Positions 22,946-53,573 are shown, numbered from the stretch's first letter. The stretch is DNA of 64,000 bases from an uncultured Chloroflexia bacterium (GCA_963774265.1 CAVZDU010000001.1:928001-992000), one strand, 5' to 3'. Notes: generated by a model from the sequence alone, not told the origin. Numbers and translations: made by a program.

Positions 22946-22974
22946 GTTCGATCGCTTCACAACCGAATACGCTC

Positions 22975-23110
22975 AACCGCTGAAGACAGCAGGTGTCCGA
23001 ATCAGACCTAATCCACGGATGTGGACCTGCCGAGGCGAGGTTAGCGAAGCTTCTGAATGTGTTTTCAAGCCTCTGCGCCTGTCTGTCCTCGGCACAGAGG
23101 CTTTTTTGTT
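22975..23110 (+). promoter_or_regulatory. Ribosomal protein L10 leader
   Basis: GAAGACAGCAGG...TAA...CCTGCCGAGG core, then attenuator hairpin AAGCCTCTG...CAGAGGCTTTTTT before rplJ. Confidence 0.85.
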
Positions 23111-23139
23111 TCGGCATCTGAGGAAGGGAGGTACGTCGC

Positions 23140-34198: not shown

Positions 34199-35365
34199 AT
34201 GGTTAATCTGCGGTCCTTCGAAGTCCCTACTGTCGTCAAGCATGCTCCCGGTGCAGTCGAGTGCCTGGCGGATCAAGTCAAGGCCTTGGGCATTGTTCGC
34301 CCAATGATCGTCACGGACCAGGGCCTGGTCAAAGCCGGCATCGTGGATCGAGTGACGGAAGTTTTGCGCGGGGGCAACGTCGACTATCTTCTGTTCGACC
34401 GTGTGGTGGCAAACCCGCCGATCAAGCTGGTGGATGACGCCGCGGTGCTCTATAAGACAGAGAAATGCGACGGTCTGATTGGCGTTGGCGGCGGCAGCCC
34501 GATGGACACGGCCAAGGCAATTGGCGTGGTGGCCGAAAATGGCGGCTCGATCCTGCAATACGAGTGGGCAGATCCACAGCCCATCGTGCGGCCCATCCCC
34601 CCGCTGATCACCGTCCCGACCACGGCCGGCACCGGCAGTGAGGTGACCCTCTGGTCCGTAATCACTGACCCGAATCGGCACATTAAGTACAACGTGGGTG
34701 GAACCCCGTTTATCGCGGCCAAGATGGCGTTGATCGACCCGCTACTGATGCTGGACATGCCCGCGCACATCACCGCCAGCACGGGCCTGGATGCACTGAC
34801 GCATGCCATCGAGTGCTACACATGCGCATACGCTCAGCCGTGGCCGGATGCTGTGGCTCTCTGGGCGATGGAGACGCTGGCGCAATGGCTGCCTATTGCG
34901 TTCGCCCAGGGCCATAACGTCGAGGCCCGGTACAAGGTCGCTATGGCCGCCATGCTCGCCGGCATGTCCTACGGCACGGAAAGCGCCGGCGCCGTGCATG
35001 CCATGAGCCAGACGGCTGGTGGTTACTACGATCTGCCCCACGGCGTCCTGACCGCGGCCATGCTGCCCCCTGTCATGGCCTACAATTACCTGGGTGAGCC
35101 GCAGAAGTATGCGCGCATCGCGCAGGCGATGGGCGTCAACACCTGGGGTATGACCCAGCTCGAGGCGGCCGAGTCTGCGGTCGACGCGGTGCGGGACTTC
35201 GTCAAGCTCCTCGAAATCCCGACGGTGACCGAGTTGGGGGTGAAGAAGGAAGACATGCAGATGTTGGTCGACATGGCGTACAACGATCCACAAACGATCG
35301 GGAACCCCCGCGACCTGATCCGGAAGAGCTATGAGCAGATCTACGGAATGTGCCTTGCGGCTTGA
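34199..35365 (+). CDS. Iron-containing alcohol dehydrogenase
   Basis: GGGSPMD, PTTAGTGSE, DALTHAIE, HAMS and PHG motifs. Confidence 0.93.
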   Translation: MVNLRSFEVPTVVKHAPGAVECLADQVKALGIVRPMIVTDQGLVKAGIVDRVTEVLRGGNVDYLLFDRVVANPPIKLVDDAAVLYKTEKCDGLIGVGGGSPMDTAKAIGVVAENGGSILQYEWADPQPIVRPIPPLITVPTTAGTGSEVTLWSVITDPNRHIKYNVGGTPFIAAKMALIDPLLMLDMPAHITASTGLDALTHAIECYTCAYAQPWPDAVALWAMETLAQWLPIAFAQGHNVEARYKVAMAAMLAGMSYGTESAGAVHAMSQTAGGYYDLPHGVLTAAMLPPVMAYNYLGEPQKYARIAQAMGVNTWGMTQLEAAESAVDAVRDFVKLLEIPTVTELGVKKEDMQMLVDMAYNDPQTIGNPRDLIRKSYEQIYGMCLAA

Positions 35366-35394
35366 TTAGTGCGGTGAAGTGCGCGAGGAGGTTC

Positions 35395-35435
35395 TTGACA
35401 GCAGGGTGATCCTGTGATATACTAGAAATATATCA
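35395..35435 (+). promoter_or_regulatory. sigma70 promoter with second copy of the operator
   Basis: TTGACA(35395)-17-TATACT(35418); TGATATACTAGAAATATATCA at 35415-35435. Confidence 0.8.
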
Positions 35436-35620
35436 GGGTGAAGTCCGGTGACTCGTGCAATGACGACAGGCCGGCGCTGTCCCGCAACTGTGAGGCGTGG
35501 CTTAGTTGTCTGCGCCAAGCCAGACCGCCCCTTGCCGACCATGCACATCGTGCGGTCGTGAGCGCGAAGGATTCCCGCGGAGGGGTCTCGCTGTCAAACA
35601 GCGAGACCCCTTTTCTATTC
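35435..35620 (+). ncRNA. Cobalamin riboswitch with expression-platform terminator
   Basis: GAAGTCCGGTG...CCGGCGCTGTCCCGCAACTGTGA...AAGCCAGACC core motifs; 14-bp terminator stem at 35581-35611 plus TTTCTATT. Confidence 0.82.
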
Positions 35621-35757
35621 CTTCCCATTGTCCATCGGTTGGGAGGTGACCGACAGCCCCTACAAAGCATAACGCACCGCCATAAGGGGCAGATTCCAAG
35701 ATCGATTCAACTCTGTTAGTACACAAACACCCCAGATGTCTTTCAAGGAGGACGTAA

Positions 35758-37152
35758 ATGTCTAGTCGAAACCGTGGCTCTCGGACCGGGAGCCTTTTGG
35801 CCCTCTTAATGGTTCTTACGATAGCCCTGTCGCTCGCCGGCTGTGCACAACCAGCCGCACCGACTGCTGCCCCCCAGGCAGCCGCACCGACTGCTGCCCC
35901 CCAGGCAGCCGCACCGACTGCTGCCCCCCAGGCAGCTGCACCGACTGCTGCCCCTCAGGCGGCCGCACCGAGCAAAGTCTTCAAATTGGGCGTGGACGGC
36001 CCCTTCAGCGGGCCGGGCGCGAAGACCGGCGAAGAGTTCAGGCGCTCGTTCCAGATGGCCATGGAGGCGATCAATTACACAATTGGTGATTACAAGATCG
36101 AGCCTGTCTGGATCGACGACCAGTCCGACCCGGCCAAGGGCGCCGCGGCCTACGAGCAGGCCGTCGTGCAGGATAAGATCCAGGCGGGGATTCTGCAACT
36201 GGAACAGCTCGGTGGCGGTTGCGCTCATGGAATTCACCGCCAAGTACAAGATCCCTCACTTCTTCGGTTTCGGCGCCACCGAGGTGGTCAATGAGACCTT
36301 TGCGTCTGATCCCGAGAAATACGGCTACTGGATGAATCAAGGGTTGGGCGTCGCCGAGCAAGCTAACGATATCTTACGTCGATGCGTTGGAAGATGCGAT
36401 TGCCAAGGGCACCTATCAAGCCGGAAGCCAAGACGGTCGCTCTCGCCGGCGAGGACACCGACTGGGGACGCAGCTTCCTGCGGAGCCATCAAGGGCCAGT
36501 TCGAAGCGAAGGGTTGGAAGATCGTCTGCTGAAGAGTACTTCCCGATCGATCAGAGCGAGTTCACGCCCCTGATGACCAAGCTGAAGGAGAGCGATCCGG
36601 CCGTGTTGGTGGTGTCCAGCGTTGTGACCCCGGTGTCGTCGGCTGCAATCAAGCAGGCGGAACAGGTGGGACTGAAGAGTCTGATCATTGCCGACGGCCT
36701 GGGGTGGGCTGGCAACTGGTACGAGCTGACGGGCAAGTCCTCCGAATTATGTGCTGGACCAGATCCCACAGCTGGCGACGGATAAGGCGAAGGCGTTCGC
36801 CAAGGCGTACGAGACCAAGTACGGCGACAAGCCGAGCCCGTCGGCAGCCGGGTTGGCGTATGATGGCACGAACTACTTTATCGCCATGGCCAACGAGGTC
36901 ATCAAGGTGAACAACGGTGAGTTGACCGGCGAGGCCATCTACAAATTCGTGAAGGAAAAAATCTGGACGGGCGAGTGGATCTATAAGGACGGGATCATCA
37001 TGCCGGCGTACAAGTATATGCCGGACACGATTCCGGATCCAGTGGTCGGCGCCGGCTATTACATGTTCCCGGTGCTGCAATACTTTGATGGCGAAAGCAA
37101 GATCGTGTTCCCCAACGACGTTGCTACGCAGCCTCTACAAGCCAAGCCGTAG
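35758..37152 (+). CDS. Liv-type ABC transporter substrate-binding lipoprotein (frameshifted)
   Basis: Lipobox LAGC, Ala/Pro linker, KLGVDGPFSG and EDTDWG motifs. Confidence 0.88.
35854..35970 (+). repeat. 27-bp coding tandem repeat, about 4.3 copies (AAPTAAPQA)
   Basis: GCCGCACCGACTGCTGCCCCCCAGGCA repeated. Confidence 0.92.
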
Positions 37153-37261
37153 CACCAGGCGCCCGGGACCCGGCCACGCAGGCAGGGTCCCGGGTTTGGT
37201 CTCCTCGGGGCAGGGCGGCCCTGTTCTACCGCTGCTTTCGGCACGTCTCAGGCGGTGACAG

Positions 37262-37995
37262 ATGATCCTTGAGGCCAGCAATGTCGTGAAGAATTTTGGC
37301 GGCTTGACTGCCGTCAATCGCGTGTCGCTCCAGGTGGACGAGGGAGAAATCATCGGGCTGATAGGGCCCAACGGTGCTGGTAAGACGACTTTCCTCAACT
37401 GTTTGGCCGGCACCTTCAGGCCCAGCTGCAGGCACGGTGCACTTCCGGGGGGAGAACACAACTGGAGCTTCGGCAGACGTCATGTGCCACCGGGGTATGT
37501 CGCGTACTTTCCAGATTCCGCTTCCCTTTCCTAAGATGACGGTTCTGGAGAACGTCATGGTGGGAGCGCAATTTGGTGGTGGGAGCCGCCATCATGCGGC
37601 GCCTGCCAGGCAGCGGGCGGAGGAAGCGCTGGCTTTCGTGCAGTTTTCCTTGCCGCTCGATACACCGGCTCAGCTGGTGCAACGCGGTGCAGCTCAAACG
37701 CCTCGACCTGGCCCGTGCCTGGGCATGCAGCCCGAAGCTGCTGTTGCTTGACGAGCTGGCATCTGGGCTGACGCCTACCGAGTTGGACGAGATGATCACG
37801 TTGATCAGAAGCATCCGCGATCGCGGCGTGGCCATCATCGCCGTCGAGCACATTATGCGGGTGATCATGGGCATCTGCGATCGCATCCTGGTGATTCAGT
37901 ACGGCACGCCGATCGCCGAAGGCCTGCCCAACGATGTTTTGCGCGATCCGAAAGTGATTGAGGCCTATCTTGGTGACGAGAAGGTCGCACACTAG
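37262..37995 (+). CDS. ABC transporter ATPase, LivG-like (frameshifted)
   Basis: [22 protein letters not shown] and VIEAYLG motifs. Confidence 0.9.
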
Positions 37996-38025
37996 CGCCG
38001 GCGCCACGGTACGAGGCGCTTACAC

Positions 38026-38756
38026 TTGTGCGCCCGGGAGGCACCCTTGCTCGAAATAAGAAACATCGACACCAGCTATGATTTCCTCCAGGTACTCTGG
38101 GATGTATCCTTGTCGGTCCAGAAGGGCGAGTTCGTGGCCTTGATCGGCCCGAACGGAGCGGGCAAGACCACGACGCTTGCGCACCATTGCTGGGTTGCTG
38201 CGACCCAGGGCGGGTCAAGTCATCTTTGACGGCAGATCCATCAGCGGTCTGACGGCCGCACGAGATCAGCCGCATGGGCCTGGCCTACGTTTCGGAGAGT
38301 CTCAACCTCTTCACTAACATGTCGGTGCACGAGAATCTGCTGCTGGGCGCATACTCCATACAGGACAAAGCAACAGCGCGAAGAGACGTTGCAGTTCGTA
38401 TTCGAATTGTTTCCCCGGTTGGAAGAACGCGCCAGACAGTTGGCCGGCACGATGAGCGGCGGCGAGCGCAAGATGCTGGCCATCGGCCGGGGCATCATGT
38501 CCAGCCCGCGGGCTATGCTGATCGACGAGCCGTCTCTCGGTCTGGCGCCTCACCTGGCTCACGAGGTCTTTCAGGGATTGCGTTACGCTTAACCAGCGTG
38601 GGGTCACGATTCTTCTGGTCGAGCAGAACGTGCACATGACTCTGGAAATCATCCAGCCGGGCCTACGTGATGGAGCATGGCCGCGTGGTCATGGAGGGCC
38701 CGAGCCGGGAGCTGAAACAGAACGAGCACGTCCGCAAGGCCTATCTCGGGATTTGA
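38026..38756 (+). CDS. ABC transporter ATPase, LivF-like (frameshifted)
   Basis: [22 protein letters not shown] and DEPSLGLAP motifs. Confidence 0.9.
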
Positions 38757-38767
38757 TGAGGAGAGCC

Positions 38768-39821
38768 ATGAGTACCAGCAAAGATCCTCCTGCCGCGAGT
38801 ACGGCAAGACTTCAACCCGTCGCCGCGCAGGAATATACCCGCCCTGGCGGTTGGCGTGCTGTCGTTGGTGATCGCGGTATTGATTGGGGTCAACGGCGGG
38901 CCGGCGCAGCTGTTCACCACCCTGGTCACAGGCGGCATGTGGGCACTGATGTCGGTTGGGCTGGCGCTTATCTTCGGTGTGATGAACATCCCGCATTTCG
39001 CCCACGGCGAATCGTTCATGATCGGGGCCTACGTCGCCTGGTTCGTGTTCACCCCCTTCAAATCGCACGCTGCAGCAGCACCCCAATGCATTTCCTGCGC
39101 GCGGTGGCGCCTTTCGTCGGCATGCTTGCGGCCGCCGTCGTCGGCGCAGTTATGGGTGTAGTGATCGAGCGTCTGATCTTTGCACCCTGCGTCACCGGAC
39201 TAAGGAAGGCTGGGTTATGAACGCCTTTCTGTTGACGGTGGGCCTGTCCTTCGTTCTGACCAACGGCACTACCTTGGCGCTTGGCCCCGACTATCGAGGC
39301 GTGCCGCAATACTGGGACGTGCCGTCACTGCAGTTCCTGGGCATGCGCGTCACCGTGGACCGGTTGGTGGCTTTCGCCGTTGCGTTGCTCGTGATCGGCG
39401 CCCTGTGGCTTTTTCTGCAGCGCACCAGTACCGGCCGGGCGATCCGTGCCGTCTCGCAGGATGAGACGGGCGCGCAGATGGTGGGCATCAATCTCGATGG
39501 CATCCAGACGCTGACCTTTTCCCTGGCCACCGCGACTGCCGCGCTGGCGGGCGCCTCCCTGCTTTTCATGTTCCCGGCCTATCCCCTCGTGGGCCTCAAC
39601 CCGCTCTACTTTTCCTGGTACGTGGTGATGCTCGTCGGACTTGGCAATGTCCCCGGCGCTATCATCGGCGGCTTTATCGTGGCTCTGTTGCAGACGGCAA
39701 CACAACAGTTTTTCGGCATCTCCTGGGAAACGTTATCCCGACAGCAATCATGGTCATCGTGCTGCTGGTGGCGCCTTCGGGCATCTTCGGCAGCGAGGTC
39801 AAGGGCGTTCAAGAACAGTGA
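38768..39821 (+). CDS. ABC permease, LivH-like (frameshifted)
   Basis: GLALIFGVMNIPHFAHG and GRAIRAVSQD motifs. Confidence 0.88.
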
Positions 39822-39837
39822 GGCGTGAGTGATAGCG

Positions 39838-40902
39838 ATGAAGAGTAACCTCGAGGACAAACAGCAACATGCCGCGGTGAGAGGTGGCCTGTGGCAGACC
39901 CTGGTGGGCGGCTGGATCGCATCGGCATTCACGCCGCTCGGATTGGCCCTGTTGGTGATCATCGCCATCTTGCCGAACGTGCCGCCCTTCAACCAGGAGC
40001 ATATGCTGCGCTGGCTGATCGCCGGCGCGTTCCTCGGACGCCCAGGCAGTGGCCTTCGATTTCACGGCCGGGTTCATCAATGTGGTTAATTTCGGCTTTG
40101 CCGCCATGGTCGGATTGGGAGCCTACACCTCAGCCCTCTTGGCCAACACCGCTCCGTACCTGGTGCTCAGGCCGGGGATATCGCCCTGGATCGGCATTTG
40201 GGTTGGCGCACTGGTGGCAGGCCTGCTGGGCTTGGTGCTCGGCATGCTTACTTTGCGTCTGCGTGGCATCTATGCAGCGGTGATGGCCTGGTTTGTGGGC
40301 ATTGCCCTGCTGGGTTTGGCCAACAATCTGACCAGGCTGACGCGCGGTTCGATGGGTTTGCATCCGCGGGCTCTGTTCACCACGACTGATAATCTGCCGT
40401 ACTTCTACGTCATCCTGGGCATGCTGCTGCTCATCTACGTCACCTTGCACCTGGTCACCAAGTCGTCGTACGGCCTGGCCTTCAAGGCCATCGGGCAGAA
40501 CATCGATGCCGCGCGGGCTTCAGGGATCGATCCGACGAAGTACCGGGTGTTCAACTTCGCGCTGTCGTGCTTCTTCGCGGGCCTGCTCGGTGGATTCTAT
40601 GCACACTACTACGGCTCGCTGACCCCTAAGAACGTGATGCACACCTCAAAGACAGTGGAAGTGCTCGCCAGTTGCCTATATCGGCGGTCGCGGCAGCCTG
40701 TGGGGCGGCATCGCGTTCGCGTTCCCCTTCATCTTCTTCATCGAGTACTTGCGCTCCAGTCTGACCGATCTTGCCCGGGCTGCACCTGGTGATTTACGGC
40801 ATCGTGATGATGCTGGTGATGATCTACTATCCCGCCGGGTTCGCCGGGGCCTACTACTGGCTGACCTCGAAACTGCGCCGGGGCAGCCGCCCAAAGAGGT
40901 AG
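39838..40902 (+). CDS. ABC permease, LivM-like (frameshifted)
   Basis: LRLRGIY, GLAFKAIGQN and GGRGSLWG motifs. Confidence 0.88.
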
Positions 40903-40922
40903 ATCAAAGGGGAAGATAAGGC

Positions 40923-41210
40923 GTGACCCGATCTGATCATTATCCCGCCGAGTTTGAGCAATTCACCATCCAGGTGGACGGTGAATCGCTGCCGGCCCGG
41001 CGCGGGCAGACGGTGGCGGCGGTATTGACCGGCGCAGGCCGGCTGGTCCTGCGCCGGACCGCCAGCGGCGCGCCGCGCGGTGTCTTCTGTGGCATGGGCG
41101 TCTGCTATGACTGTGTCGTGACGATCGATGGCGTTCCCGATCAGCGCGCGTGCATGACGCCCGCGCGCCCGGGCATGTGGGTGCAAACGCACTCCCGCCA
41201 GGAACCTTGA
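40923..41210 (+). CDS. [2Fe-2S] small subunit (HcnA/sarcosine oxidase alpha N-term-like)
   Basis: RGVFCGMGVCYDC...RAC motif. Confidence 0.9.
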   Translation: MTRSDHYPAEFEQFTIQVDGESLPARRGQTVAAVLTGAGRLVLRRTASGAPRGVFCGMGVCYDCVVTIDGVPDQRACMTPARPGMWVQTHSRQEP

Positions 41211-42751
41211 TGGGGCAACTCCTGGTGTCGACGCATTCTGATCCCTGTATCCTCGTCATCGGCGCCGGTCCTGCAGGTCTGGCAGCGGCCGTCACGGCTG
41301 CTGAACTCGGCCTACGCGTGGTGTTGATGGATGAGGCGGCCACTCCAGGTGGGCAGTATCTCTCTGGGGGTGACTCAGCCAGCGACGATCGTGCAGCCGC
41401 AGGGCACGGCTCTCAGGCAAAAGCGGAACGCGACGGAGCAGCGTTGATGGCCCGTGCAAACGTACTCAGCCGCGCGGCGGGATCCCGCCTCGGGCTTCGG
41501 TGTGGCGCGACCGTGTGGAGCCTCACTCCCAGTCCCGACGGGACGGCTCCCGGCCTCATCGCCATGGTCCATCACGGTGGCAGATACGGCACCCGGGCCG
41601 GCTCCGAGCGCGTCGAGGCGGATGCCGTCATCCTGGCCACGGGCGCGCGGGAGACGGTCGCTCCGTTTCCCGGCTGGACCTTGCCGGGGGTGATGACGGT
41701 GGGGGCGGCCCAATTGCTGGTCAAGCGCCACGGGGTCAGTCCCGCTGGGCCGGGGCAGCGAGTCTTGCTCGCGGGATCAGGACTGCTCTTGCTGCCGGCG
41801 GCGGCACGGTTAGTCGAGGCCGGCGCATACGTCGTGGGAGTTCTGGAAGCCGCGCACCTGGATGCATCCACCATTCGCCAAGCCGCCTTGTCCGGGATTT
41901 CGGAATGGGCGCCGGCATTGTGGGATCGGTCAGGCGAAGGCTGGCACTATCTGTCCGCTTTGCGCAAGGGCCGCGTCCCATATCGGTTTGGCCGGGCGGT
42001 GGTCCGGGCAAGGGGAGTCGAGCGTGTGGAAGCGGTGGATATCGCACGACTGGACCGCACAGGCGCACCGCTCCCGGGGCTTACGGAGACGTGGCCGGTC
42101 GATCTCTTGTGTGTCGGCTACGGTTTAGTCCCGAATATCGAATTGGCCCAACTGGCAGGGGCCAGGGTCCGCTACAGTGCGGAATTGGGTGGATGGGCCG
42201 TTGAAGTGGATGAACTATCGGGGGTGCAGACGACCGTGCCGGGTCTGTTTGTGGCAGGAGAGACCTCCGGCATCAGAGGTGCGGGCAGCGCATTGTTGAG
42301 CGGGCGGCTTGCGACAATGAGCGCCGCGGCATGGCTGGGTCGGCTGCCCCAGGCCGCACTGCAGGCCGAATTGGCCGGCGCCGCGCGGCGCCGGCGGCAG
42401 GATGCGCGTTTCGGCGCCCTGATCAATCTGCTGTTTGGCGCTCCGGACGGGCTAACGCGGGCCATCCCCGACGACACACCCATGTGCCGGTGCGAGGAAG
42501 TGACCGCCGGACAGGTGCGGGCAGCCATTGCAGCGGGTTCACGGTCGTTGGATGCGTTGAAACCGGCCTTGCGTGTCGGGCAGGGCCTTTGTCAGGGGCG
42601 CACATGTGGTCCGGCGTTGGCGGGCATGATCGCCATCGAAACAGGTAGATCTGTTGAGGCATCCGGACTGTTTCAAACGCGCCCGCCGGTCAAGCCTGTG
42701 CCGCTCGCCGCAATCGCCGGACCGGCTGCAGTGGGGGATGGTTCACTGTGA
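41210..42751 (+). CDS. FAD/NAD(P) oxidoreductase with BFD-like [2Fe-2S] domain (HcnB/OoxA-like)
   Basis: GAGPAG, ATGARE..FPGWTLPGV, CRCEEV, GLCQGRTC and RPP motifs. Confidence 0.9.
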   Translation: MGQLLVSTHSDPCILVIGAGPAGLAAAVTAAELGLRVVLMDEAATPGGQYLSGGDSASDDRAAAGHGSQAKAERDGAALMARANVLSRAAGSRLGLRCGATVWSLTPSPDGTAPGLIAMVHHGGRYGTRAGSERVEADAVILATGARETVAPFPGWTLPGVMTVGAAQLLVKRHGVSPAGPGQRVLLAGSGLLLLPAAARLVEAGAYVVGVLEAAHLDASTIRQAALSGISEWAPALWDRSGEGWHYLSALRKGRVPYRFGRAVVRARGVERVEAVDIARLDRTGAPLPGLTETWPVDLLCVGYGLVPNIELAQLAGARVRYSAELGGWAVEVDELSGVQTTVPGLFVAGETSGIRGAGSALLSGRLATMSAAAWLGRLPQAALQAELAGAARRRRQDARFGALINLLFGAPDGLTRAIPDDTPMCRCEEVTAGQVRAAIAAGSRSLDALKPALRVGQGLCQGRTCGPALAGMIAIETGRSVEASGLFQTRPPVKPVPLAAIAGPAAVGDGSL

Positions 42752-43959
42752 AGGCCCACGCGGATGTGATCGTTGTCGGTGGCGGCATTGTGGGCGCAGC
42801 GTGCGCTTACTACCTGGCGCAGTCCGGCATCGGCGTCCAGGTCCTGGAGCGCCAGTTCTTTGCCAGCGGCACATCTCGTGCATGTGACGGATTGATCCTT
42901 TCCTGGGATAAGCAGTCGCCGGCCGAGCTTGAACTGGGACAGGCCAGCGCCGCACTATGGGCCAGTTTGGCTGATGAGCTGCCTTTCGATTTCGAGTACC
43001 GGCGCCAGGGCTCGATTGTCCTTGCCGAAACAGGGGATACCCTGGCTGACCTGCACAAGAAAGCGGTCGACCTGGGGGAGGCCGGCATCCGCGCAGAGAT
43101 GTTGGATGCAGCGGGGCTACTGGTGCTCGAACCCAACCTGGCGCCGGATCTGGCCGGGGGCGTCTTCTACCCTGACGATGCACAGCTCGACGCCCGCCTG
43201 GCGACGCTGGCATTGCTTGAAGAGGCTGCCCGCCTCGGTGCTGACCTGAGGCAAGGTGTCGAAGTACGCGGCTTACAGCGGCAGCACGATGGCCGCGTGA
43301 CGGGCGTCCTCACCGCTGATGGCGCGATCGAAGCGGATGACGTGGTGATCGCCGGTGGGGTGTGGAGCAGCGAGATGCTGCGCGAAGCCGGGCTGGACCT
43401 GCCGATCCGACCGCGCAAGGGGCACATCGTCGTCGCGTCGGTGCGCCACATGCCCGACCTGATTGCCCATCCGCTGGCGGAGGGAAGCTATGCGGCCTCC
43501 GTGAAATCGTCAGCCGAAGATGTGCAGGTGGCGCTCATCGCAGAAAAGACGGCCAGCGACACGCTGCTTCTGGGCAGCAGTCGTGAGTTCTGCGGCTTCG
43601 ATCGGTCGGTTCGAGTGGAGGTCATCCAGGCGATTGCGGCGCGCGCGATCCGATTCCTGCCTGCACTGGCTACGGCAAGTGCAATGCGGAGTTATGCAGG
43701 CCTCCGGCCGTGGAGCCCGGATCATCTCCCATTGATCGGACCGGTGGACACCCATCCGGGGTTGTTTTTGGCTGCAGGGCATGAAGGAGCCGGCATCGGC
43801 CTCGCGCCGATCACGGGCCGCATGATCGCTGACTGGATCAGGTGCTACCCTGACGGGCCTACCGTCGACGCAGAACCGCGGCGCGCTGGCGTCGCACCAG
43901 ATCCCCACGGGGGACTTCCCATGGGGTGGACCGCAACTCGGCCGGGACGTTTTCTCTAG
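42748..43959 (+). CDS. DAO-family FAD-dependent amino acid dehydrogenase subunit (HcnC/OoxB-like)
   Basis: GGGIVG, GLRPWSPDHLPLIG and GHEGAGI motifs. Confidence 0.9.
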   Translation: MKAHADVIVVGGGIVGAACAYYLAQSGIGVQVLERQFFASGTSRACDGLILSWDKQSPAELELGQASAALWASLADELPFDFEYRRQGSIVLAETGDTLADLHKKAVDLGEAGIRAEMLDAAGLLVLEPNLAPDLAGGVFYPDDAQLDARLATLALLEEAARLGADLRQGVEVRGLQRQHDGRVTGVLTADGAIEADDVVIAGGVWSSEMLREAGLDLPIRPRKGHIVVASVRHMPDLIAHPLAEGSYAASVKSSAEDVQVALIAEKTASDTLLLGSSREFCGFDRSVRVEVIQAIAARAIRFLPALATASAMRSYAGLRPWSPDHLPLIGPVDTHPGLFLAAGHEGAGIGLAPITGRMIADWIRCYPDGPTVDAEPRRAGVAPDPHGGLPMGWTATRPGRFL

Positions 43960-44006
43960 GTGTCTGGAAACGATCCGGTCCAAATAACTGATGTGAGGTG
44001 GAGAAT

Positions 44007-44876
44007 ATGGCACAAGCTCTAACAACGGTCGTCTCTTCGTCCAAGAAAAGGGTTGAGATCAATCGGGAGAAGCCCACAGTGATCGTCGGAGAGCGCATCA
44101 ATCCGACTGGGCGAAAGCAGGTGCTTGCGGCGTTCGCTGCCGGCGATTTCGGCATTGCCCGCAGTGATGCAATTGCACAGGTCGAGGCGGGTGCGCACAT
44201 GTTGGATGTGAATGCAGGCGTGCCCGGCGCGGATGAACCGGAGTTGCTGGTCCAGGTGTTGAAGAGCGTCATGGAAGTCACTGACGTTCCTTTGTGCATC
44301 GACACGGCTGATCCCCTGGCGCTCGCCGCCGCACTAAAGCTGTATCAAGGCAAGGCGCTGATCAACTCCTGTAACGGTGAGGAGCGCTCCCTCGATGCGG
44401 TGCTGCCGATTGTCAAGGAGCACGGCGCTGCCGTGATCGCCCTTTGCATGGATGATGATGGCATCCCTGATACCGCCCAGGGCCGGTTGAAGGTGGCGGG
44501 AAAGATCATCGAGCGCGCAGGCAAGATGGGCATCCCCATCGAAGACATTGTAGTCGATCCGCTCGCCCTGACAATGGGGGCGGACAGTACCGCTGGTCGC
44601 GTGGCACTGGATGCTATTGAGTTGATCGTGGCCGAATTCGGTGTCAACATCACCATGGGCGCCAGCAATATCTCGTTTGGCATGCCCGACCGTCCGTACA
44701 TCAACTCGGCATTCATCGCGATGGCGATCCACGCGGGCCTGACCTGCCCGATCACCAATCCGTTGGTCACTCCCGTGATCACAGCCATTCTTGCCGCGGA
44801 TCTGGCCATGGGCCACGATTCGTACGGCTCGCGGTGGATCAAGGCCTATCGCAAGCGCCAGAGCACCGGCGCCTGA
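44007..44876 (+). CDS. Methylcorrinoid:tetrahydrofolate methyltransferase (pterin-binding, AcsE/MetH-like)
   Basis: IVGERINPTG, LDVNAG, LCIDT, INS, VDP and GASNISFG motifs. Confidence 0.9.
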   Translation: MAQALTTVVSSSKKRVEINREKPTVIVGERINPTGRKQVLAAFAAGDFGIARSDAIAQVEAGAHMLDVNAGVPGADEPELLVQVLKSVMEVTDVPLCIDTADPLALAAALKLYQGKALINSCNGEERSLDAVLPIVKEHGAAVIALCMDDDGIPDTAQGRLKVAGKIIERAGKMGIPIEDIVVDPLALTMGADSTAGRVALDAIELIVAEFGVNITMGASNISFGMPDRPYINSAFIAMAIHAGLTCPITNPLVTPVITAILAADLAMGHDSYGSRWIKAYRKRQSTGA

Positions 44877-44917
44877 CAGTTACGCAGGCGATCGCCTGCA
44901 CCCAGGGTGAGGCGCAT

Positions 44918-45565
44918 ATGGTTGGGGAGACATTCACGCTGACCGATGCCCAACGGGCATACCAGCAGATCAAGGATCGGATTATCACAACGGCGATGCA
45001 GCCGGGCGCGGTCATCCAGGAAGCTGACTTGATGAGCGAGCTGGGGTTGGGCCGCACTCCTGTGCGTGAAGCGCTGAAGCTCCTGGAGGCGGAAAACCTT
45101 GTCGTGGTCTCCCCCCGGCGCGGCATTTTTGTCACCGATGTCACCTTGACGGATCTGCTGCACGTGCAGGAAATCCGTCTTGAACTGGATTCGCTGTCCG
45201 CGCGGCTGGCTGTGCAACGCGCGATGCCTGTAGAGGTTGCTGAGTTGCGCAGACTGATCGCCGAAGCCAGGAAGTGCGAGGGCCACGGTGACCCGCAGGC
45301 GCTGCTAGCCATTGACCGTGAGCTCCATGCCGTACTGCGGGAAGCGTCCCACAATCGACTGTTGGCGAACGAATGCGAAATGCTGTTCAACCTGTCCCTG
45401 CGCATCTGGTACCTGTTCGTTCGCCGTCTCGAACCTCAGCATCTCGCGGAGGATGCCTTCGATGAGATCCTGGAGGCCATCAATACCGGGAATATCGCCC
45501 AGGCGGATCGTGCCATGCGGCGCCACATCATGTCTTTCGGCGATTCGATCAAACTGATTCTCTGA
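44918..45565 (+). CDS. GntR/FCD transcriptional regulator
   Basis: LGLGRTPVREAL HTH plus FCD domain. Confidence 0.92.
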   Translation: MVGETFTLTDAQRAYQQIKDRIITTAMQPGAVIQEADLMSELGLGRTPVREALKLLEAENLVVVSPRRGIFVTDVTLTDLLHVQEIRLELDSLSARLAVQRAMPVEVAELRRLIAEARKCEGHGDPQALLAIDRELHAVLREASHNRLLANECEMLFNLSLRIWYLFVRRLEPQHLAEDAFDEILEAINTGNIAQADRAMRRHIMSFGDSIKLIL

Positions 45566-45592
45566 TCCAATCATAGCAAGGGAGGCTAAGCT

Positions 45593-46232
45593 GTGAGTGA
45601 AGTTCTGATGAAAATATCTGAAGCGATCATCGAAGGCAACGTCGATGACATTGTCGATCTGACGGAGGAGGCCCTGGACGAGGGCTCCACTGCCGAGGAA
45701 GTCTTGAACCTGGGGCTAATGGCGGGCATGGACTACGTCGGCGTCGAGTTCAAGGCCGGCAATATGTTCGTCCCGGAGGTGCTGCGCTCGGCTAAGGCGA
45801 TGCAGTCCGCTATGGAGCTGCTGCGGCCACTGCTGGCGAAGGCGGGCATCAAGCACACCGGCAAGTTGCTGCTCGGCACCGTCAAGGGCGACTTGCATGA
45901 CATCGGCAAAAATCTGGTCGGCATGATGTGTGAGGGCGCCGGGTTCGAGGTCACGGACCTCGGCAAGGATATCGACGCCCGAACAGTTCGTGGCTGCGAT
46001 CAAAGAGCGGCAGCCCGATGTGTTGGGCATGTCCGCGCTTTTGACCACGACCATGCGCGCGATGGGACATACCATCAAGGCCCTGGAAGAAGCGGGTCTG
46101 CGCGATCAGGTTAAGGTGATGGTCGGCGGCGCACCTGTGACGCAGGCATTTGCGGATCAAATCAACGCCGACGGTTATGCGCCGAACGCGGCAGCCGCAG
46201 CGGAGCTGGCTCGCAAGCTGGTTGCTGCATAG
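45593..46232 (+). CDS. Corrinoid (B12-binding) protein 1 (frameshift)
   Basis: MFVPEVL, GDLHDIGKN, SALLTTT and MVGGAP motifs. Confidence 0.94.
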
Positions 46233-46278
46233 ACTTCAGCGCATCCCGCGAGGGGATGGTTCCCAAAGGAGAACCTAC

Positions 46279-47743
46279 ATGAGGACAAACTACGTAGCCA
46301 ATGCTGGCGTGCGCTTCAATGTGTTCTCGCAGGACCAGTTGGAGGAGCTGTTCAACGGCGTGTTGCACCTCTTGCAGTACACGGGTCTGGACGTAAAACA
46401 CGAGGAAGCACGTGACATTCTGGCGAAAGCCGGTGCATGGGTTGACGGCGAGCGTGTGCGGCTGCCCTCACACATGGTGAAGGATGCGTTGCGCAAGGCG
46501 CCGCGCAGCTTCACCCTCTGGGCTCGCGACGGCAATCCGAAGCATAACATCCACATCGGCCCTGGCCGCGCGCACTTCGGCCCCGGCCCCACGTGCACGC
46601 ACTTCATCGACGCGGAGACGTTGGAGCGCCGGCCGTACACAAAGGCAGACGTGCCGTTGGTGGCGCGGCTGGTGGATGCCCTGCCCAACATCGACTTCTG
46701 CGAGTCATTGGGCACGGTGGATGATGTGCACTTCGACTTGGGCGCGCTGTACGAGTTTGCGGGCATGTTCCCCAACACCAGCAAGCCCATTGTCGCCTGG
46801 TCATACGACAAGTTCGACTCGGCCGGCATTCACGAGATCGCCGTGGCCGAGGCCGGCGGGCAGCGGGCGTTCGAGCAGCGGCCCACCTACGTCCACTACT
46901 GCGAGCCGCTGTCGCCGCTGGTCAGCACGTTCGAGGCGCTCGACAAGCTGATCTTCGCCGCCACGCACCGCGTGCCCGCTGGTCTTCACGCCCTGCCCCA
47001 TTGCAGGCGGCACCGCGCCGATCACCGGCGCGGGCATCATCACCATGGGCGCGGCCGAGTCGTGGATGGGCCTGACGCTGGCACAAATCCTCCAGCCGGG
47101 CCTGCCCTTCTTCATGGGCGGCGTGTTCTCGGCGATGGACATGAACACGATGATCCTGGCCTACGGCGCGCCGGAACTGCCGCTGTACATGGCCGGCCTG
47201 ACCGAGCTGGCGCACTATGCCGGACTGCCGCTGTGGCAGACGGGCGGCTGCACCGACTCAAAGAGCTTCGACGGCCAGGCCATGATCGAAGGCTCGATGT
47301 CGGTGTTCTTCTCGGCGCTCACCAGCGGCGACCTGTGTCACGATGTGGGCTACACCGAAAGCGCCATGACCGGCTCGCTCTTCCAGCTTTGCGCCATGGA
47401 CGAGGCCATCGGCTACTCGCGGCGCATCACGCGCGGCATCGAGGTCAACGATGACACGCTGGCCGTGGAGGTCATCAACAAGGTCGGTCCCAACAACCAC
47501 TACCTGCGCCAGCCGCATACCCGCAAGTATTACAAGAGCGAGTACTTCTATCCCAAGCTGCTCGACCGGCAGGACTTCGAGAACTGGGAGTCCAGCGGCA
47601 GCATGACGATGAAGGATCGCACCATCGCCCGCGTGCGCGACATCCTGGCGACGCACAAGGCCTCGCCGGTCAAGCCGGAGACCCAGAAGGTCATCGAGAA
47701 GGTTCTGGCGGAGGCGGAGGATCGGGTCAAGGACAAGGTTTAG
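46279..47743 (+). CDS. MttB-superfamily (trimethylamine methyltransferase-like) substrate:corrinoid methyltransferase 1, no pyrrolysine (frameshift near 46980)
   Basis: APRSFTL, DALPNIDF, PLSPL, YGAPE, GGCTDSK and VGPNNHYL motifs. Confidence 0.9.
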
Positions 47744-47763
47744 TTCACGCAAGAGAGGACACC

Positions 47764-48406
47764 ATGAGCAGACTACTCGAAAAAATGTCCACCGCCATCC
47801 TGGAAGGGGATGCGGAAAAGATCCCCAAGCTGGTGAAGAAGGCGCTGGGCGAGGGCGTATCGGCCAAAGACATCCTGGACAACGGCCTGTTGGTCGGCAT
47901 GAACGAGGTCGGTGTACGTTTCAAGGCCGGCGATATGTTCGTGCCCGAGGTGCTGATGTCGGCCGAGGCGATGCAGTCGGCCATGGTTGTGCTGCGGCCG
48001 CAACTGGCCAAGAGCGGCGCACAAGCAGATCGGCAAGGTGATGCTGGGCACGGTCAAGGGCGACCTGCACGACATCGGCAAGAACCTGGTGGGCATGATG
48101 TGCGAGGGCGCGGGCTTCGAGGTCATCGACATCGGCTTCAATGTCGATCCGGAGAAGTTCGTCGAGCAGATCAAGAAGCATCAGCCGCAGGTCGTCGGCA
48201 TGTCGGCCATGTTGACGACCACGATGCGCGCGATGGGCCACACGATCAAGGCGATCGAGGAAGCCGGCCTGCGCGACACCGTGAAGATCATGGTCGGCGG
48301 CGCGCCGGTGGACGCCGAGTTCGCCAAGCGCATCGGCGCGGACGGCTACGGCTCGAATGCGCCTGCCGGCGCCGATCTGGCCAAGAAATTCGTCGGCGCG
48401 GCCTGA
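47764..48406 (+). CDS. Corrinoid protein 2 (frameshift)
   Basis: MFVPEVL, GDLHDIGKN and SAMLTTT motifs. Confidence 0.94.
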
Positions 48407-48409
48407 GCC

Positions 48410-49141
48410 ATGGGGCACGTTGAGCGCAACGCAGTGAAACCGCCCGTCGTCATCCTGACGTGCCGAGTGCTGATGAGCGCGTTGGAGCGCTTGGTGCCAC
48501 CCGATCTGGCCTCCGAGGTTCGGTTCCTGGACTACGGCCTGCATCGCGTGCCGGTTAAGCTCACTGCGGCGGTGCAGGAAAGCCTGGAGTCGATCGAGCA
48601 AGCCAGCCTGGTCGTGCTCGGTTACGGCCTGTGCGGGAATGGGTTGCGCGGGATTCAGTCAGGACAGCACACCTTGCTGATCCCACGCACTGATGACTGC
48701 ATCGCCATCTTGCTGGGTTCGTACAAGGCATACATGCAGCAGTTCCAGGCAGTGCCAGGCACTTACTACCTGACCAAGGGATGGCTCGAATCGGGCAGCG
48801 ATCCGCTGAGGGAATACGAGGAGTATTCGGCTAAGTGGGGCGAAGAAACCGCCATGTGGCTGATGGATCAGCAATACCAGAACTACAAGCGCCTGGTGCT
48901 GGTGGCCCCCAATGCCGAAGAGATGACCCAATATCGCCCGCAGGCGCTCGAAGTCGCCAACTTCTGCAAGCGCTGGGGAATGGTCTACGAGGAGATGTTC
49001 GGGTCCGACGACTATGTGCGCCGGCTGATCGAAACGGCTATTCGAGTGAGGGATTCTGGAACGGATACCGGCCCTATCGGCCCCGACTTTCTTGTGATTC
49101 GGCCCGGCGGGGAGATCGAACAGGCGATGTTCATGCGCTAA
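48410..49141 (+). CDS. DUF1638-like protein
   Basis: C..., GLH..P, GYGLCGNG, DDCIAILLG and YYLTKGW motifs; typical neighbour of corrinoid methyltransferases. Confidence 0.8.
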   Translation: MGHVERNAVKPPVVILTCRVLMSALERLVPPDLASEVRFLDYGLHRVPVKLTAAVQESLESIEQASLVVLGYGLCGNGLRGIQSGQHTLLIPRTDDCIAILLGSYKAYMQQFQAVPGTYYLTKGWLESGSDPLREYEEYSAKWGEETAMWLMDQQYQNYKRLVLVAPNAEEMTQYRPQALEVANFCKRWGMVYEEMFGSDDYVRRLIETAIRVRDSGTDTGPIGPDFLVIRPGGEIEQAMFMR

Positions 49142-49196
49142 CGTGCTTACTACGCACTCGAAAGCGTGCAGACGCACGAAGAGGAGATCAACGACC

Positions 49197-50711
49197 ATGC
49201 AGAGAATAAGAATAACTACACGGTCAACGCCACGCCCACGATTCAGGTGCTGACCGAGCAGCAGATCGAAGCGATCTACTACGCCGCGCTCGGCGTCCTC
49301 TCAGAGACCGGCGTGCACGTTTACGACAAGGAAGGTTGGGATCTGGCCTACCAGGGCGGCGCCGTCGTCGAAGACGTGCAGGCCGACAACGCGCTGGTCA
49401 AGATGCCTTCCTGGATGGTGGACAAGGCCCGCGCCACGCTGCCGCAACGCATCCGCGTCATCGGCCCCGCTGGCGCCGACGGCGTGCGCAAGTACAAGAT
49501 GGATCTGTACAAGAACACGATGTACTTCGGCACCGGCTCGGATACGCCGTTCACCCTCGATCCTTACACCCAGGCGCCGCCGCGCGGTGTACAAGGATGT
49601 GAAGAACCTGGCCAAGCTGGCGGAGGCGCTGCCGAACGTCGACTTCTTCATGTCGCTCGGCATCACGCAGGACACGGCCGTCGGCACGTACGACCGCTGG
49701 CAGTACCTGGCAATGCTCGAAGCCACGACCAAGCCGATCAACATCACCGCGGTGGACATCGAGGGCCTCAAGGATCAGCTCGAGATGGCCTACATCCGGC
49801 TGGGCGGCAAGGAAGAGTGGAAGAAGGCGCCCTGTTTCTCGCTTTACAACGAGCCGGTGTCGCCGCTGAGCCACTCCGAGGAAGTGATCCAGAAGCTGCT
49901 CTTCTGCGCGGACCACGATATCCCGATCGTCTACACGCCGTGCCCGTTGGCGGGCGCGACTTCGCCCGCCACGTTGGCCGGCACGATGGTGCAGGCGCTC
50001 ACCGAGAGCCTCTTCGGCATCGTCCTCAGCCAGTTGCGCAAGCCGGGCACGGAGGTCATCATCGGCGGCCTGATGTCTGCCATGGACATGCAGACGGCGG
50101 TCTACCCGTACGGCTCGCCCGAAATGGCGCTGCTGAGCGCGGGCTACACCGAGATCACCAAGTGGCTGCGGGTGCCCGAGTACGAAACCGCCGGCTGCTC
50201 CGACGCCAAATGCTTCGACGAGCAGGCGTGCATGGAGGCCGCGATCAACATCAGCACCGCGGCCCTGGTCGGCGGCAACATGATCCACGACATCGGCTAC
50301 ATCGAGCAGGGCCTGTGCAGCAGCCCGCACATGTTGGTCGCGTCGGATGAGATCATCAGCCGCGCCAAGCGCATCCTGCGCGGCATCCCGGTCGATGCGG
50401 ACACGCAGGCGCTCGACGTCCTGGATGAGATCGGTCCGGGCGGCCACTTCCTGGGGCACGATCACACCTTCAGCCGCTTCAAGACGGAGAACTGGCGATC
50501 CGCGCTGGCTGACCGGCAGGTCTACGCTGACTGGGAAACTTCCGGCAGCAAGAACTACCAGCAGCGTGTGCACGAGCGGATGATCGAGATTCTCGAAGCC
50601 GAGACCGAACCGCTGCTCGATCCGAAGATGTACCAGGAACTGCACCGCATCTGCGAGCTGGCGGACGCGCGGCACAAGGACGAAGAGCTCGACGTCCAGA
50701 TGTTTGTGTAA
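49197..50711 (+). CDS. MttB-superfamily methyltransferase 2, no pyrrolysine (frameshift near 49580)
   Basis: FGTGS, ALPNVDF, PVSPL, SPATLAG, YGSPE, AGCSDAK and GPGGHFL motifs. Confidence 0.9.
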
Positions 50712-50716
50712 CTTTC

Positions 50717-50758
50717 GGTGCCCGGCACTGACGCCAGGTCTAAGTGCCGGGCACCTAA
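50717..50758. repeat. Intergenic inverted repeat GGTGCCCGGCACT...AGTGCCGGGCACC (copy 1)
   Basis: Same arms recur at 58075-58122. Confidence 0.8.
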
Positions 50759-50781
50759 CGTCCCCAAAGGTCAGGTGACCC

Positions 50782-52807
50782 TTGACTACAGCTAGCGATA
50801 GTCTTGTTCTTGGCATCGACACCGGCGGCACCTATACCGACGCAGTCCTGCTGGAATACCATTCGCGGCGGGTGCTGGCCACACACAAGAGCCTGACCAC
50901 CAAGCGCGACTTTTCGATCGGGATCGAGCAGGTCATCGACGGCATCCACATCGATGATCCCTCGTCCGATCAAGATGGTCTCTATCTCCACAACCCTGGC
51001 GACAAACGCAATCGCCGAGGGCAAAGGGAAACGGGTCGCGCTTGCTTCTCATCGGCTACGATCCGGAACTGATCGCGAATTTTCAGCATGGAGCGGCCGG
51101 TTTGCCACGCCGCATTTCTTCTATTTTCGCGGGGGCCATGACCTCTACGGCCGCGAGAAGGCCGAGTTGGACTTGACCGGCATCCTGGCCCAGGTGAACA
51201 AGATCAAGGACCGTGTCGACGCGATCGCGGTCTCCAGCTATTTCAGCCCGCTCAATCCCGAGCACGAAAACCGCGTCTACAACGCCATCTCCAGCATTTG
51301 TGACCTGCCGATCGTCCTGGGCCATCAGCTTTCGACCAGGCTTGGTTCGGTCGAACGCGCCACGACCGCTGCGCTGAATGCATCGCTGCTGGCGGTCTTG
51401 CAGGACTTCATCATCGCCGTGCGCCGGGCGATGGAGCGACGGCATATCGACGCGCCGCTGATGGTCGTGCGCGGGGACGGCACGCTGATGAGCGACGAGT
51501 TTGCTGCTCGCACGCCGGTCGAGACGATTCACTCGGGCCCGGCTGCCAGCGCCATCGGCGGCCGGTTCCTGACTAACCTGGATGAAGCGTTGGTCGTCGA
51601 TGTGGGCGGCACGACAACGGACCTGGCCCTGATCGAGGGCGGACAGGTGCGCGTCAGCACCGAGGGCGCCACTGTCGGCGAGTACAAGACGTCAGTGCAG
51701 GCGGCCCACCTTCTTTCGATCGCCCTGGGCGGCGACAGCCACATTCGTACGGCGCGCGATGGCCAGATTACCGTCGGCCCGGAGCGTGTGCTGCCGCTGG
51801 CGCACCTGGCCCACCTGCACCCGGACGTGGCCAGGCGGCTCAGGGCGCTGTCACGGCGGCAGTGGTCCCAGGCAACGCCCGACTGGCTGGAATACTGGTG
51901 CCTGTTGCGCGAGCCGCCGCCAGGCCTGCTCGAGAGCAGCCAGGAAGAGGCGCTGGTCGCCTTGCTGCGCGACGGTCCCCAGCCCGTGCCGGAAATTCTC
52001 AAGCACTTGAACGCACTCCACGTGGGTCAAATCCATGTGGCTGAGTTGATGCGCCAGGAGATCATCGGCAAGGCTGGCCTGACGCCCACCGATCTGATGC
52101 ATGTGGAGGGCAGCTACGCGCTATGGGATGTCGAATCCGCGAACCTGGCGCTGCAGGTGTTCAGCCATCATGTGCACGCCGCTGACCCTGCGCAGCGAGA
52201 GCCCGCACAAGTCCGCCGTCGCATCTGGGAGCGTATCACGGAGATGGCGGTGCATGCGATCGTTGCTTTCCTGACGGGAAAGCAGCTTCCGCCACCCGGA
52301 GCCGTCGATCCTGAGCGCGAAGAGGGCATCGGGCCCTGGTTCCTGCATAACAGCTTGTATCGCGTTCACCCCCACCTCGCCACCGAGTTTCATCTCAATA
52401 TCCCGATCATCGGCATCGGCGCGGCGGCCAGGCTGTTCCTGAAGCCGGTTGCCGAGGCGTTCCACACTGAGCTTGTGCTGCCAACGCACCATGAGGTGGC
52501 CAATGCGGTGGGCGCGATCGCCGGCAGCGTGATGGTCAGCGAGGAGGTGCTGGTCTATCCGCGGTTCGACGGGGCGGGGCTCGAGGTGCTGGGCTATTAT
52601 GTGCAGACCGGCGATCAGCGCACCGAAATCGATGATGTCACTGAAGCGCTGGCGCAGGCCCGAGCGCTGGCCCATGAGCGGGCGCTCGGCGGCGCGCTCC
52701 GCTCCGGCGCGGACAATCCCCAGGTGATGGTCGAACAACTCACCGACGGGCTTGACACCTACCGCGTTCGCGCCAAGGCCGTGGGCAACCCCCGCCTGGC
52801 GCGGTGA
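50782..52807 (+). CDS. Hydantoinase A/oxoprolinase-family ATP-dependent protein (frameshifts near 5' end)
   Basis: GIDTGGTYTD, STTLATNA, SGPAAS, DVGGTTTD, TPTD and VANAVGA motifs. Confidence 0.88.
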
Positions 52808-52857
52808 CGATTGAAGATCCAAGATTGAAGGCTGAAGATCCTGCAGGGGAGGATGGC

Positions 52858-53511: not shown

Positions 53512-53573
53512 CGATTGACGATTGAAGATTGAAGATTGAAGATGGCATCGGATACCAGTTGGGCGGACTTGGG

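Follow-up and report, generated by a model that had tools for sequence, protein, structure and literature searches.

A compact cobalamin-class riboswitch with a probable B12-ON layout in front of corrinoid-dependent methyltransferase genes in Chloroflexota

Introduction

The textbook cobalamin riboswitch switches B12 supply genes off. The 64,000-nucleotide stretch analysed here, from an uncultured Chloroflexia bacterium (GCA_963774265.1, CAVZDU010000001.1:928001-992000; referred to as the window, with positions counted from its first letter), carries a cobalamin-type leader in front of genes for a Liv-type transporter and for corrinoid-dependent methyltransferases. The question raised by this locus is whether a corrinoid would switch such genes off or on. 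A first-pass annotation, made from the sequence alone, had argued for activation. Judging from the architecture of the leader and its genomic context, we consider it probable that the element is a cobalamin (corrinoid) riboswitch that acts on transcription and has ON polarity.

The first corrinoid riboswitch described as an activator is the one upstream of cobT in Alkalihalobacillus halodurans (Procknow et al., 2023; PMC10653944). In that switch, a ligand-stabilised kiss between loops L5 and L13 holds the P13 hairpin, which has a strand in common with the terminator, and the model is backed by disruptive point mutants as well as compensatory mutants. Because cobT is wired likewise, the ON model of the first-pass annotation represents a known mechanism and not a new principle.

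Results

P13, the kissing loop and the terminator

The features of the leader are collected in Table 1. The first-pass annotation had described an L5 motif, a hairpin extendable by GCGA/TCGC and a perfect 14-bp (base pair) terminator; all three were found as described, and two further G-T pairs extend the terminator to 35579-35613. The 14 Watson-Crick pairs of the terminator join 35581-94 with 35598-611 and are followed by TTTTCTATT / UUUUCUAUU. It was the only terminator-like site in 35000-36200, where shuffled sequences give 0.7. Positions 35582-35591 serve both as the 3' strand of P13 and as part of the 5' arm of the terminator, with 6-10 nucleotides (nt) common to the two structures. The mutual exclusion that had been claimed for them by way of this common strand thus holds, and it is kept in 41 homologs.

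The complementarity of L13 to L5 stood in part. The best register pairs CCCG (35481-84) with CG-GG (35576-77, 35579-80), giving four Watson-Crick pairs with C35578 bulged, and a straight complement of TCCCGC was not found. The bulged base varied across 85 homologous sites (A35, G29, C16, U5). A close-variant DNA contig carries 35578 C>T at this middle L13 base, together with P6 changes that improve pairing, although a single low-depth contig is weak evidence.

The minimum-free-energy fold of the whole-leader RNA contained P13 when the RNA ended at 35591 or 35597, and the terminator won in the full-length leader. These modelled fold energies would fit an ON switch that is under kinetic control and terminates by default. 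As long as corrinoid is absent, the terminator (-28.9 kcal/mol) would displace the weak P13 (-9.6 kcal/mol) and transcription would stop at about 35613-19. With corrinoid bound, the L5-L13 kiss would lock P13 while the polymerase passes, so that the base of the terminator could not close. Read-through would then enter the Liv-type transporter genes and probably also the corrinoid-dependent methyltransferase cluster. The logic would be one of cofactor gating, in which the cell would make a B12-dependent pathway, and the importer of its substrate, only with the cofactor at hand.

The pairing of P13 was analysed over 34 aligned platforms. The core helix was 89.4% paired, with a covariation score of 0.281 that none of 500 column shuffles reached, while slid controls gave 0.10-0.20. 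The pair beside the closing pair was U-A 28, C-G 3 and G-U 1, and the fifth pair was C-G 7, G-C 5, A-U 3 and U-A 3. The invariance of the bases in the 3' strand is uninformative because the search pattern fixed three of them; the free 5' partners follow these pattern-fixed bases. Covariation was seen in the P13 core, and the overlap was conserved, with the middle L13 base variable. The extension helix GCGA/UCGC was 46% paired across the platforms and was rejected as a general feature, being specific to the family of the window.

Table 1. Coordinates of the promoter, leader and downstream features in the window.
Feature	Position	Strand	Basis or remark
Sigma-70-type promoter, TTGACA + 17 nt + TG-n-TATACT	35395-35423	+	11/12 positions match
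Dyad GATATA-N7-TATATC	35416-35434		Overlaps -10 box and transcription start; candidate operator
Compact cobalamin-type aptamer	35436-35530	+	RF00174 sub-threshold match; covariation; core conserved in closest ortholog (G002)
P3	35436-40 with 35526-30	+	RNAalifold consensus
P4	35445-48 with 35471-74	+	RNAalifold consensus
L4 insert hairpin UCGU/ACGA	35453-35466	+	Covarying hairpin in relatives
L5 UCCCG	35480-84	+	Sequence; TCCCGC at 35480-35485
P6	35487-35523	+	RNAalifold consensus gives lower and distal P6
B12 box AAGCCAGACC	35517-26	+	Shortened form (AGCCAGACC)
Spacer hairpin CGACC..GCAC-AUC-GUGC-GGUCG	35536-35558	+	-10.8 kcal/mol; between aptamer and P13
P13 hairpin, candidate antiterminator	35564-35591	+	Core GAUUCC[CGCGGA]GGGGUC 35570-87; -9.6 kcal/mol
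P13 extension GCGA/UCGC, AG bulge	35564-67 / 35588-91	+	Sequence
L13 loop CGCGGA	35576-81	+	Sequence
Intrinsic terminator	35579-35613, U tract to 35619	+	14 Watson-Crick and 2 G-U pairs, loop CAA, -28.9 kcal/mol
Shine-Dalgarno AAGGAGG and ATG of first gene (Liv-type lipoprotein substrate-binding protein)	35745-35760	+	Peripla_BP_6
Liv-type ABC transporter: binding protein, two ATPases, two permeases	35758-40792	+	Pfam; many open reading frame pieces
Co-directional methyltransferase/oxidase cluster	40923-57336	+	Pfam

Overlap leaders and the genes behind them

A DNA search over 61 relatives, followed by reading of the loci, revealed two layouts, in which P13 and the terminator either overlap or stand separately. 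In an even sample of 401 genomes from the class, 4 matched a strict pattern (L5 core, B12 box, CCGNGGAGRGG); a looser one matched in 7 of the 37 genomes of the window's family, at 8 sites. A further relaxed pattern matched 88 stretches in genome contigs, and 80 of these 88 loci were analysed. After the removal of identical sequences, 85 distinct sites carried the L5...B12 box...CCGNGGAG pattern. The pattern loci came from Anaerolineae, Chloroflexota, Dehalococcoidia, Caldilineae, Actinoplanes, Acidimicrobiia, Geobacter and others.

A site was called overlapping when the 18 nt from the last two L13 bases paired with a segment abutting a U tract at -17 kcal/mol or better. This held for 42 of the 85 sites, of which 41 were kept; the call at L082 was rejected, as the partner segment lies within the coding sequence of a secreted cyclase-like protein. 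Two leaders missed by the threshold, L097 (weak U tract) and L133 (-14.9 kcal/mol), are of the overlap type by eye. Found with one strict pattern, the overlap leaders number at least 41. Within these 41, the terminator pairs all of the first four nucleotides of the P13 3' strand in 34 leaders and at least three of them in 40, with at least two forming G-C pairs in 33. Every structural step of the ON model could be located, and the overlap is conserved in relatives.

The two layouts differed in the genes that follow them. Among the 42 overlap sites, the first recognisable gene encoded a Liv-type binding protein in 21 cases and MttB, MtmB, a corrinoid protein, a pterin methyltransferase or RACo in 10. 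The remainder comprised a Fer2_4 oxidase (1), SBP_bac_5 (1), metallophosphoesterase-like proteins (2), PrpD as the second gene (1), one call of B12-supply type (the false call at L082) and five sites that were unrecognisable or lay on contigs that were too short. The B12-supply type denotes BtuF-like Peripla_BP_2, CobU, CbiX-CbiC, a TonB receptor or secreted squalene-cyclase-like proteins; the last group is taken to be B12-related because of its constant placement behind ordinary riboswitches. Genes of this type followed 36 of the 43 non-overlap sites, the others being one Liv-type binding protein (L133), one methyltransferase system (L097) and five that were unrecognisable or on contigs too short. 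None of the 41 kept overlap leaders stands before B12-supply genes.

This division was also seen in a survey of the family that was independent of the P13 motif. RF00174, searched at E <= 0.01 in the 37 genomes, gave 58 matches in 35 genomes, 50 of which reached the gathering score; among the eight that fell short, six were compact copies of the overlap type. The 51 non-compact matches and the ordinary copy of the window's own genome formed a set of 52 ordinary riboswitches, of which 47 were parsed and the remaining five look, by eye, to be of the ordinary type. A gap of 16-82 nt separated P13 from the terminator in all 47. Their first genes encoded cyclase-like secreted proteins (31), BtuF-like proteins (7) or unrecognised products (9), and a methyltransferase-system or Liv gene came first in 0 of the 47.

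The ordinary riboswitches fall into two subtypes, one with CCUU[CGAGGUA]AAGG and the terminator CCCCUUGCC...GGCAAGGGG, the other with CACCCU[CGCGGAAA]GGGGUG and the terminator ACCCCGUC...GACGGGGU. Either subtype has a P13 whose 3' strand complements the 5' arm of the terminator. This is the metE-type OFF layout, which was also seen in all 20 ordinary riboswitches used in the shuffle test (see Discussion). The window's own genome holds such a copy (L001, G000:C1:471924-472064, 50 bits) before a secreted squalene-cyclase-like protein. It also holds a compact aptamer with 14.9 bits in the ordinary separate-terminator layout (L003, G000:C10:345347-345404), with P13 CACCCU[CGCGGACA]GGGGUG and the terminator AACCCCGUCGA...UCGACGGGGUU. 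The cyclase-like proteins behind ordinary riboswitches (e.g. L001, L016, L018, L023) are ~340-360 amino acids long with squalene-hopene-cyclase/prenyltransferase-like repeats, and they may be surface B12-capture proteins of Chloroflexota.

Further observations concern individual overlap leaders. MtmB is the monomethylamine methyltransferase, and in Anaerolineae metagenome-assembled genomes (L097, L135, L061) non-pyrrolysine homologs of its family, together with a corrinoid protein, lie behind overlap riboswitches. The overlap class is therefore not tied to MttB alone. Two overlap leaders (L117, L126) precede a protein of ~300 amino acids starting MTTL(Y/F)FATDVHGSDICWKKF, which gave only a sub-threshold metallophosphoesterase match (24-26 bits, cut-off 28.2). 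Eight full-size overlap leaders (L088, L093, L102, L108, L131, L133, L075, L080) carry a structured insertion of 40-90 nt in the terminator loop, which might extend the time window for ligand binding. The terminator 5' arm in these leaders has the common motif GGGAGCAGAUCG; a GAUC 5' of P13 could pair with the GAUC of this arm and lengthen P13.

The compact aptamer

The sequence of the aptamer core contains J3/4 GAA, P4 CCGGUG, L5 UCCCG, J5/6 AACUGU and a B12 box AGCCAG..ACC, and the RF00174 alignment has high posterior probability over J3/4, P4, L5, J5/6 and the B12 box. The L5 of the window is identical to the consensus quoted in PMC10653944. Applied to 15 compact homologs, RNAalifold returned P3, P4, the L4 insert hairpin, P5 and the lower and distal P6, and so supported the four-way junction. 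Of the 26 consensus pairs, 14 showed compensatory double changes, and the most variable helices were P3, the P4 insert and P6. The insertion in the P4 loop noticed by the first-pass annotation is real and forms a covarying hairpin in relatives.

The closest ortholog, G002, is 83% identical by BLAST and 87% by column identity. It keeps the aptamer core, L5, L13 and P13 without change, and the terminator stem with a single A-U to G-U near the loop. The two leaders diverge in the distal part of P6, in the loops of the L4 insert and of the terminator, and in the spacer hairpin. The spacer hairpin, though different in sequence, folds as a hairpin in G002 too (GCCGCA...UGCGGC).

The shortened 5' part of the aptamer and its position at the predicted transcription start were both recovered, with the RNA starting ~5 nt before P3 and no P1/P2. 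Relatives keep a P1/P2-like helix of 5 bp (GAUCA/UGAUC, CGAUC/GAUCG, UCGGA/UCCGA; by eye), which the window and G002 do not have. The window copy is without P1/P2 because the promoter occupies the place of this helix. The aptamer is also without the P6 extension, and on this ground it may bind a corrinoid whose upper ligand is small.

We conclude from these sequence features that the element truly belongs to the cobalamin class, although it is compact. It resembles the Rfam clan CL00101 (RF00174, RF01482 AdoCbl and AdoCbl-variant) in GAAG-CCGGUG, GCUGUCCCGCAACUGU, AGCCAGACC and the four-way junction, and differs in scoring under the gathering score. When the Rfam cobalamin models were applied to the whole window at gathering thresholds, no match was obtained. 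Ten compact homologs likewise gave no RF00174 match at E <= 0.01, whereas full-size leaders of the overlap type pass Rfam (L097 59.5, L080 53.9, L093 42.7, L037 40.8 and L101 36.5 bits). Since it scores under the Rfam thresholds, the compact subclass is missed by genome annotation.

Promoter and candidate operator

The promoter was the sole promoter-like site within 35000-36200, where shuffled sequences yield 0.3 such sites, and it is also kept in G002. Its position predicts a transcription start at about 35429-35432, some 5 nt ahead of GGGUGAAG. A dyad overlaps the -10 box and this start, and AT-rich dyads (GATATA-N7-TATATC, ATATAC-N5-GTATAT, CTGATATATCAG) lie over the -10 box or the start in several genera, namely in the window and in the homologous leaders L006, L008, L010, L012, L050, L058 and L101. 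The operator motif TGATATATCA, allowing up to two mismatches, was not enriched in the window, with 7 sites found and 8 expected. We offer the dyad, as a lead only, as a putative operator at which the cluster's own GntR/FCD regulators might act. A protein repressor bound there may add a substrate signal to the B12 signal.

Downstream genes

The first start codon lies at 35758. Behind the transporter, the cluster begins with Fer2_4, HcnB-like and DAO oxidase subunits, a pterin-binding methyltransferase, GntR and a corrinoid protein. It continues with a split MttB-family methyltransferase, a second corrinoid protein, DUF1638 and an MttB fragment, and ends with a hydantoinase-like protein, GntR, RACo, EamA and OCD. 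Pfam thus bore out the earlier statement that corrinoid-requiring methyltransferase genes lie downstream (corrinoid proteins, MttB, pterin methyltransferase, RACo). A transporter followed by the same methyltransferase cluster also occurs in the relatives G027, G015 and G006.

Simple scans of the + strand of the operon detected no strong terminator before 57358-57385 and no internal promoter with at least 10 of 12 matches. As the genes are co-directional, with neither a strong internal terminator nor an internal promoter, a single transcription unit of ~21.6 kb is possible. In G015 (locus L047), two riboswitches of the overlap type lie ~10 kb apart within one cluster, one before the Liv transporter and the other directly before Fer2_4/HcnB/DAO oxidase, pterin methyltransferase, corrinoid protein and MttB. 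The second copy weighs against the control of the whole ~21 kb by one switch, which is no more than a possibility here.

In a screen of sequencing runs, no run contained more than 0.17 of the sampled words, and one RNA run contained 0.04. The RNA contigs, which came from relatives 90-95% alike, matched the binding-protein gene in part and nothing else, and none extended over the leader. Elsewhere in the window, a tRNA gene (7210-7283) is followed after 9 nt by a T-box leader (96 bits; region 7210-7515), and an L10 leader lies at 22962-23116.

Discussion

Weighing the polarity

We regard ON polarity as the best-supported reading on three grounds: the precedent is validated, the overlap is conserved and covaries, and the two architectures divide cleanly by the function of the genes behind them. 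Several observations weigh against it. RF00174, run on 35300-35800 with permissive filters, gave 24.7 bits (E = 2.2e-4) for a gathering score of 31.5, so that of the aptamer expected from the Rfam models the core motifs stood and the gathering score was not reached. P1/P2 is missing, and the model places the 5' strand of these helices over promoter DNA, where the pairs are non-canonical. In nascent folds started at the B12 box, the closing pair of P13 formed in 11 of 43 leaders only, which we take as a caveat and not a refutation because these folds omit the 5' half of the aptamer. The 3' tail of the aptamer pairs with the terminator arm at -12.0 kcal/mol in the window, close to the -11.5 kcal/mol of the P13 5' strand, and the medians over homologs are equally close (-9.1 and -8.8 kcal/mol). 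Gene context alone cannot fix the polarity because of the mutA riboswitch of V. parvula, which precedes a B12-dependent enzyme and was studied beside a repressing metE switch; mutA presumably represses, since cobT is called the first known activator (PMC10653944). Repressing riboswitches with 0 nt between P13 and terminator are described as well, which leaves the small overlaps of some homologs ambiguous. Most cluster genes are, moreover, frameshifted over 35758-50350, and the copy could be a relic if these frameshifts are real.

Part of these observations would fit an OFF switch, the alternative that the first-pass annotation had itself named. Its antiterminator would be a duplex, formed in the unliganded state, between the 3' tail of the aptamer (AGACCGCCCCUU, 35522-33) and the 5' arm of the terminator (GGAGGGGUCU), and the ligand would repress by sequestering the tail in P3 so that the terminator forms. 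The tail-arm duplex is similar in energy to P13 and appears in the minimum-free-energy fold of the RNA ending at 35587. The low count of P13 in the shortened homolog folds, and mutA as a reported non-activator before a B12-dependent gene, point the same way. Against this, tail-arm complementarity is at the level of composition (median z -0.19, with 1 of 43 below -2), although this shuffle test has little power because it left the presumed antiterminators of ordinary riboswitches unflagged (median z -0.6, 2 of 20 below -2). The AGACC:GGUCU part of the duplex is lost in relatives, where the arm reads GGCCUC. Ligand binding, furthermore, needs the L5-L13 kiss and hence a formed P13, which is incompatible with the terminator. 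An OFF switch also leaves unexplained why P13 is placed in the terminator exactly in leaders before B12-using systems, and why the B12-supply genes of the same genomes have a different platform. We therefore judge this polarity unlikely. A decayed or ligand-independent leader, acting as a constitutive attenuator or under protein control before an operon that is perhaps decaying, is very unlikely. The low Rfam score, the 5' truncation relative to kin and the many broken reading frames would suit it, the split genes being the binding protein (~4 pieces), both ATPases, both permeases, the corrinoid proteins and MttB (46150-47454 / 47045-47743). The truncated form is nevertheless common to G002, where substitutions spare the functional elements and are compensatory in the hairpins. 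Eight compact copies in seven genomes of the family, all of the overlap type, and 26 overall likewise keep the core and covary. The frameshifts, in turn, look like long-read assembly indels rather than pseudogenes, given that the genome is 84% complete in only 10 contigs, that the two MttB parts share one frame in G015 and G006, and that a relative's contig is one base shorter at 36196, the site of a frame break. More doubtful still is a dual or other output, whereby the terminated leader RNA acts in trans, or the switch tunes mainly the transporter with the cluster separately controlled. The two copies in G015, before the transporter and before the oxidase/methyltransferase genes, and the GntR regulators inside the cluster are in keeping with it; in the window, no second riboswitch or strong terminator was detected at 40792-40923 or further on, and nothing pointed to a trans target.

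Comparison with known systems

The ON reading brings the leader closest to cobT, with which it would share transcriptional control, a kiss of four pairs with one bulged base, a P13 antiterminator and termination as the default. As described in PMC10653944, cobT controls a B12-biosynthesis gene and responds best to cobinamide, whereas the window element precedes a transporter and a corrinoid-consuming methyltransferase cluster. cobT has a full aptamer with the bulge in L5, and the window element is compact, without P1/P2 and with the bulge predicted in L13. cobT is, finally, described there as a single first case, and the window element stands within a set of at least 41 natural leaders. The repressing metE riboswitch of P. 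megaterium has the same parts (aptamer core, L5, L13 and terminator), but as described (PMC10653944) its P13 and terminator coexist, the P13 3' side pairing with the terminator 5' side only in the unliganded state. This is the layout of the ordinary riboswitches of the family (P13 3' GGGGUG or AAGGG against ACCCC or CCCUU), and not that of the window element.

A requirement for B12 in the expression of a B12-dependent pathway has parallels elsewhere. The eut and pdu genes of Listeria and Enterococcus are expressed in a B12-dependent manner through riboswitch-controlled non-coding RNAs, so that a B12-dependent catabolic pathway is likewise expressed only with B12. There, an OFF riboswitch truncates an inhibitory trans or antisense RNA, whereas the window switch would act in cis on the mRNA. 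For Listeria, a B12 riboswitch-controlled antisense RNA is described in PMC11575231. A literature search, with the supplementary riboswitch tables of PMC9600662 and PMC10653944 outside its scope, returned nothing linking riboswitches to corrinoid-dependent methyltransferase operons. The distribution of the overlap wiring appears new, the mechanism being known from one case. What appears new is the regulon, comprising B12-consuming methyltransferase systems and a transporter, together with its breadth in Chloroflexota and a compact aptamer subclass under the Rfam thresholds.

Significance

In its widest form, the proposal is that Chloroflexota carry a widespread natural B12-ON class that gates MttB/MtmB/corrinoid protein/RACo catabolism and its importers, with an Rfam-invisible compact subclass, a GntR-based cofactor-AND-substrate gate, and the first direct cis activation of B12-consuming genes; we lean slightly towards this being correct. 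If it is true, B12 would be no rare curiosity as an activator, but a common one within a major environmental phylum. It would represent a new regulatory logic, by which a cofactor directly licenses the enzymes that consume it and the importer of their substrate. Biosensor design would gain dozens of natural ON platforms, several of them built on very short aptamers. The compact subclass also marks a blind spot of current annotation. The switch would, finally, link B12 availability to the turnover of quaternary amines or methylamines by uncultured Anaerolineae.

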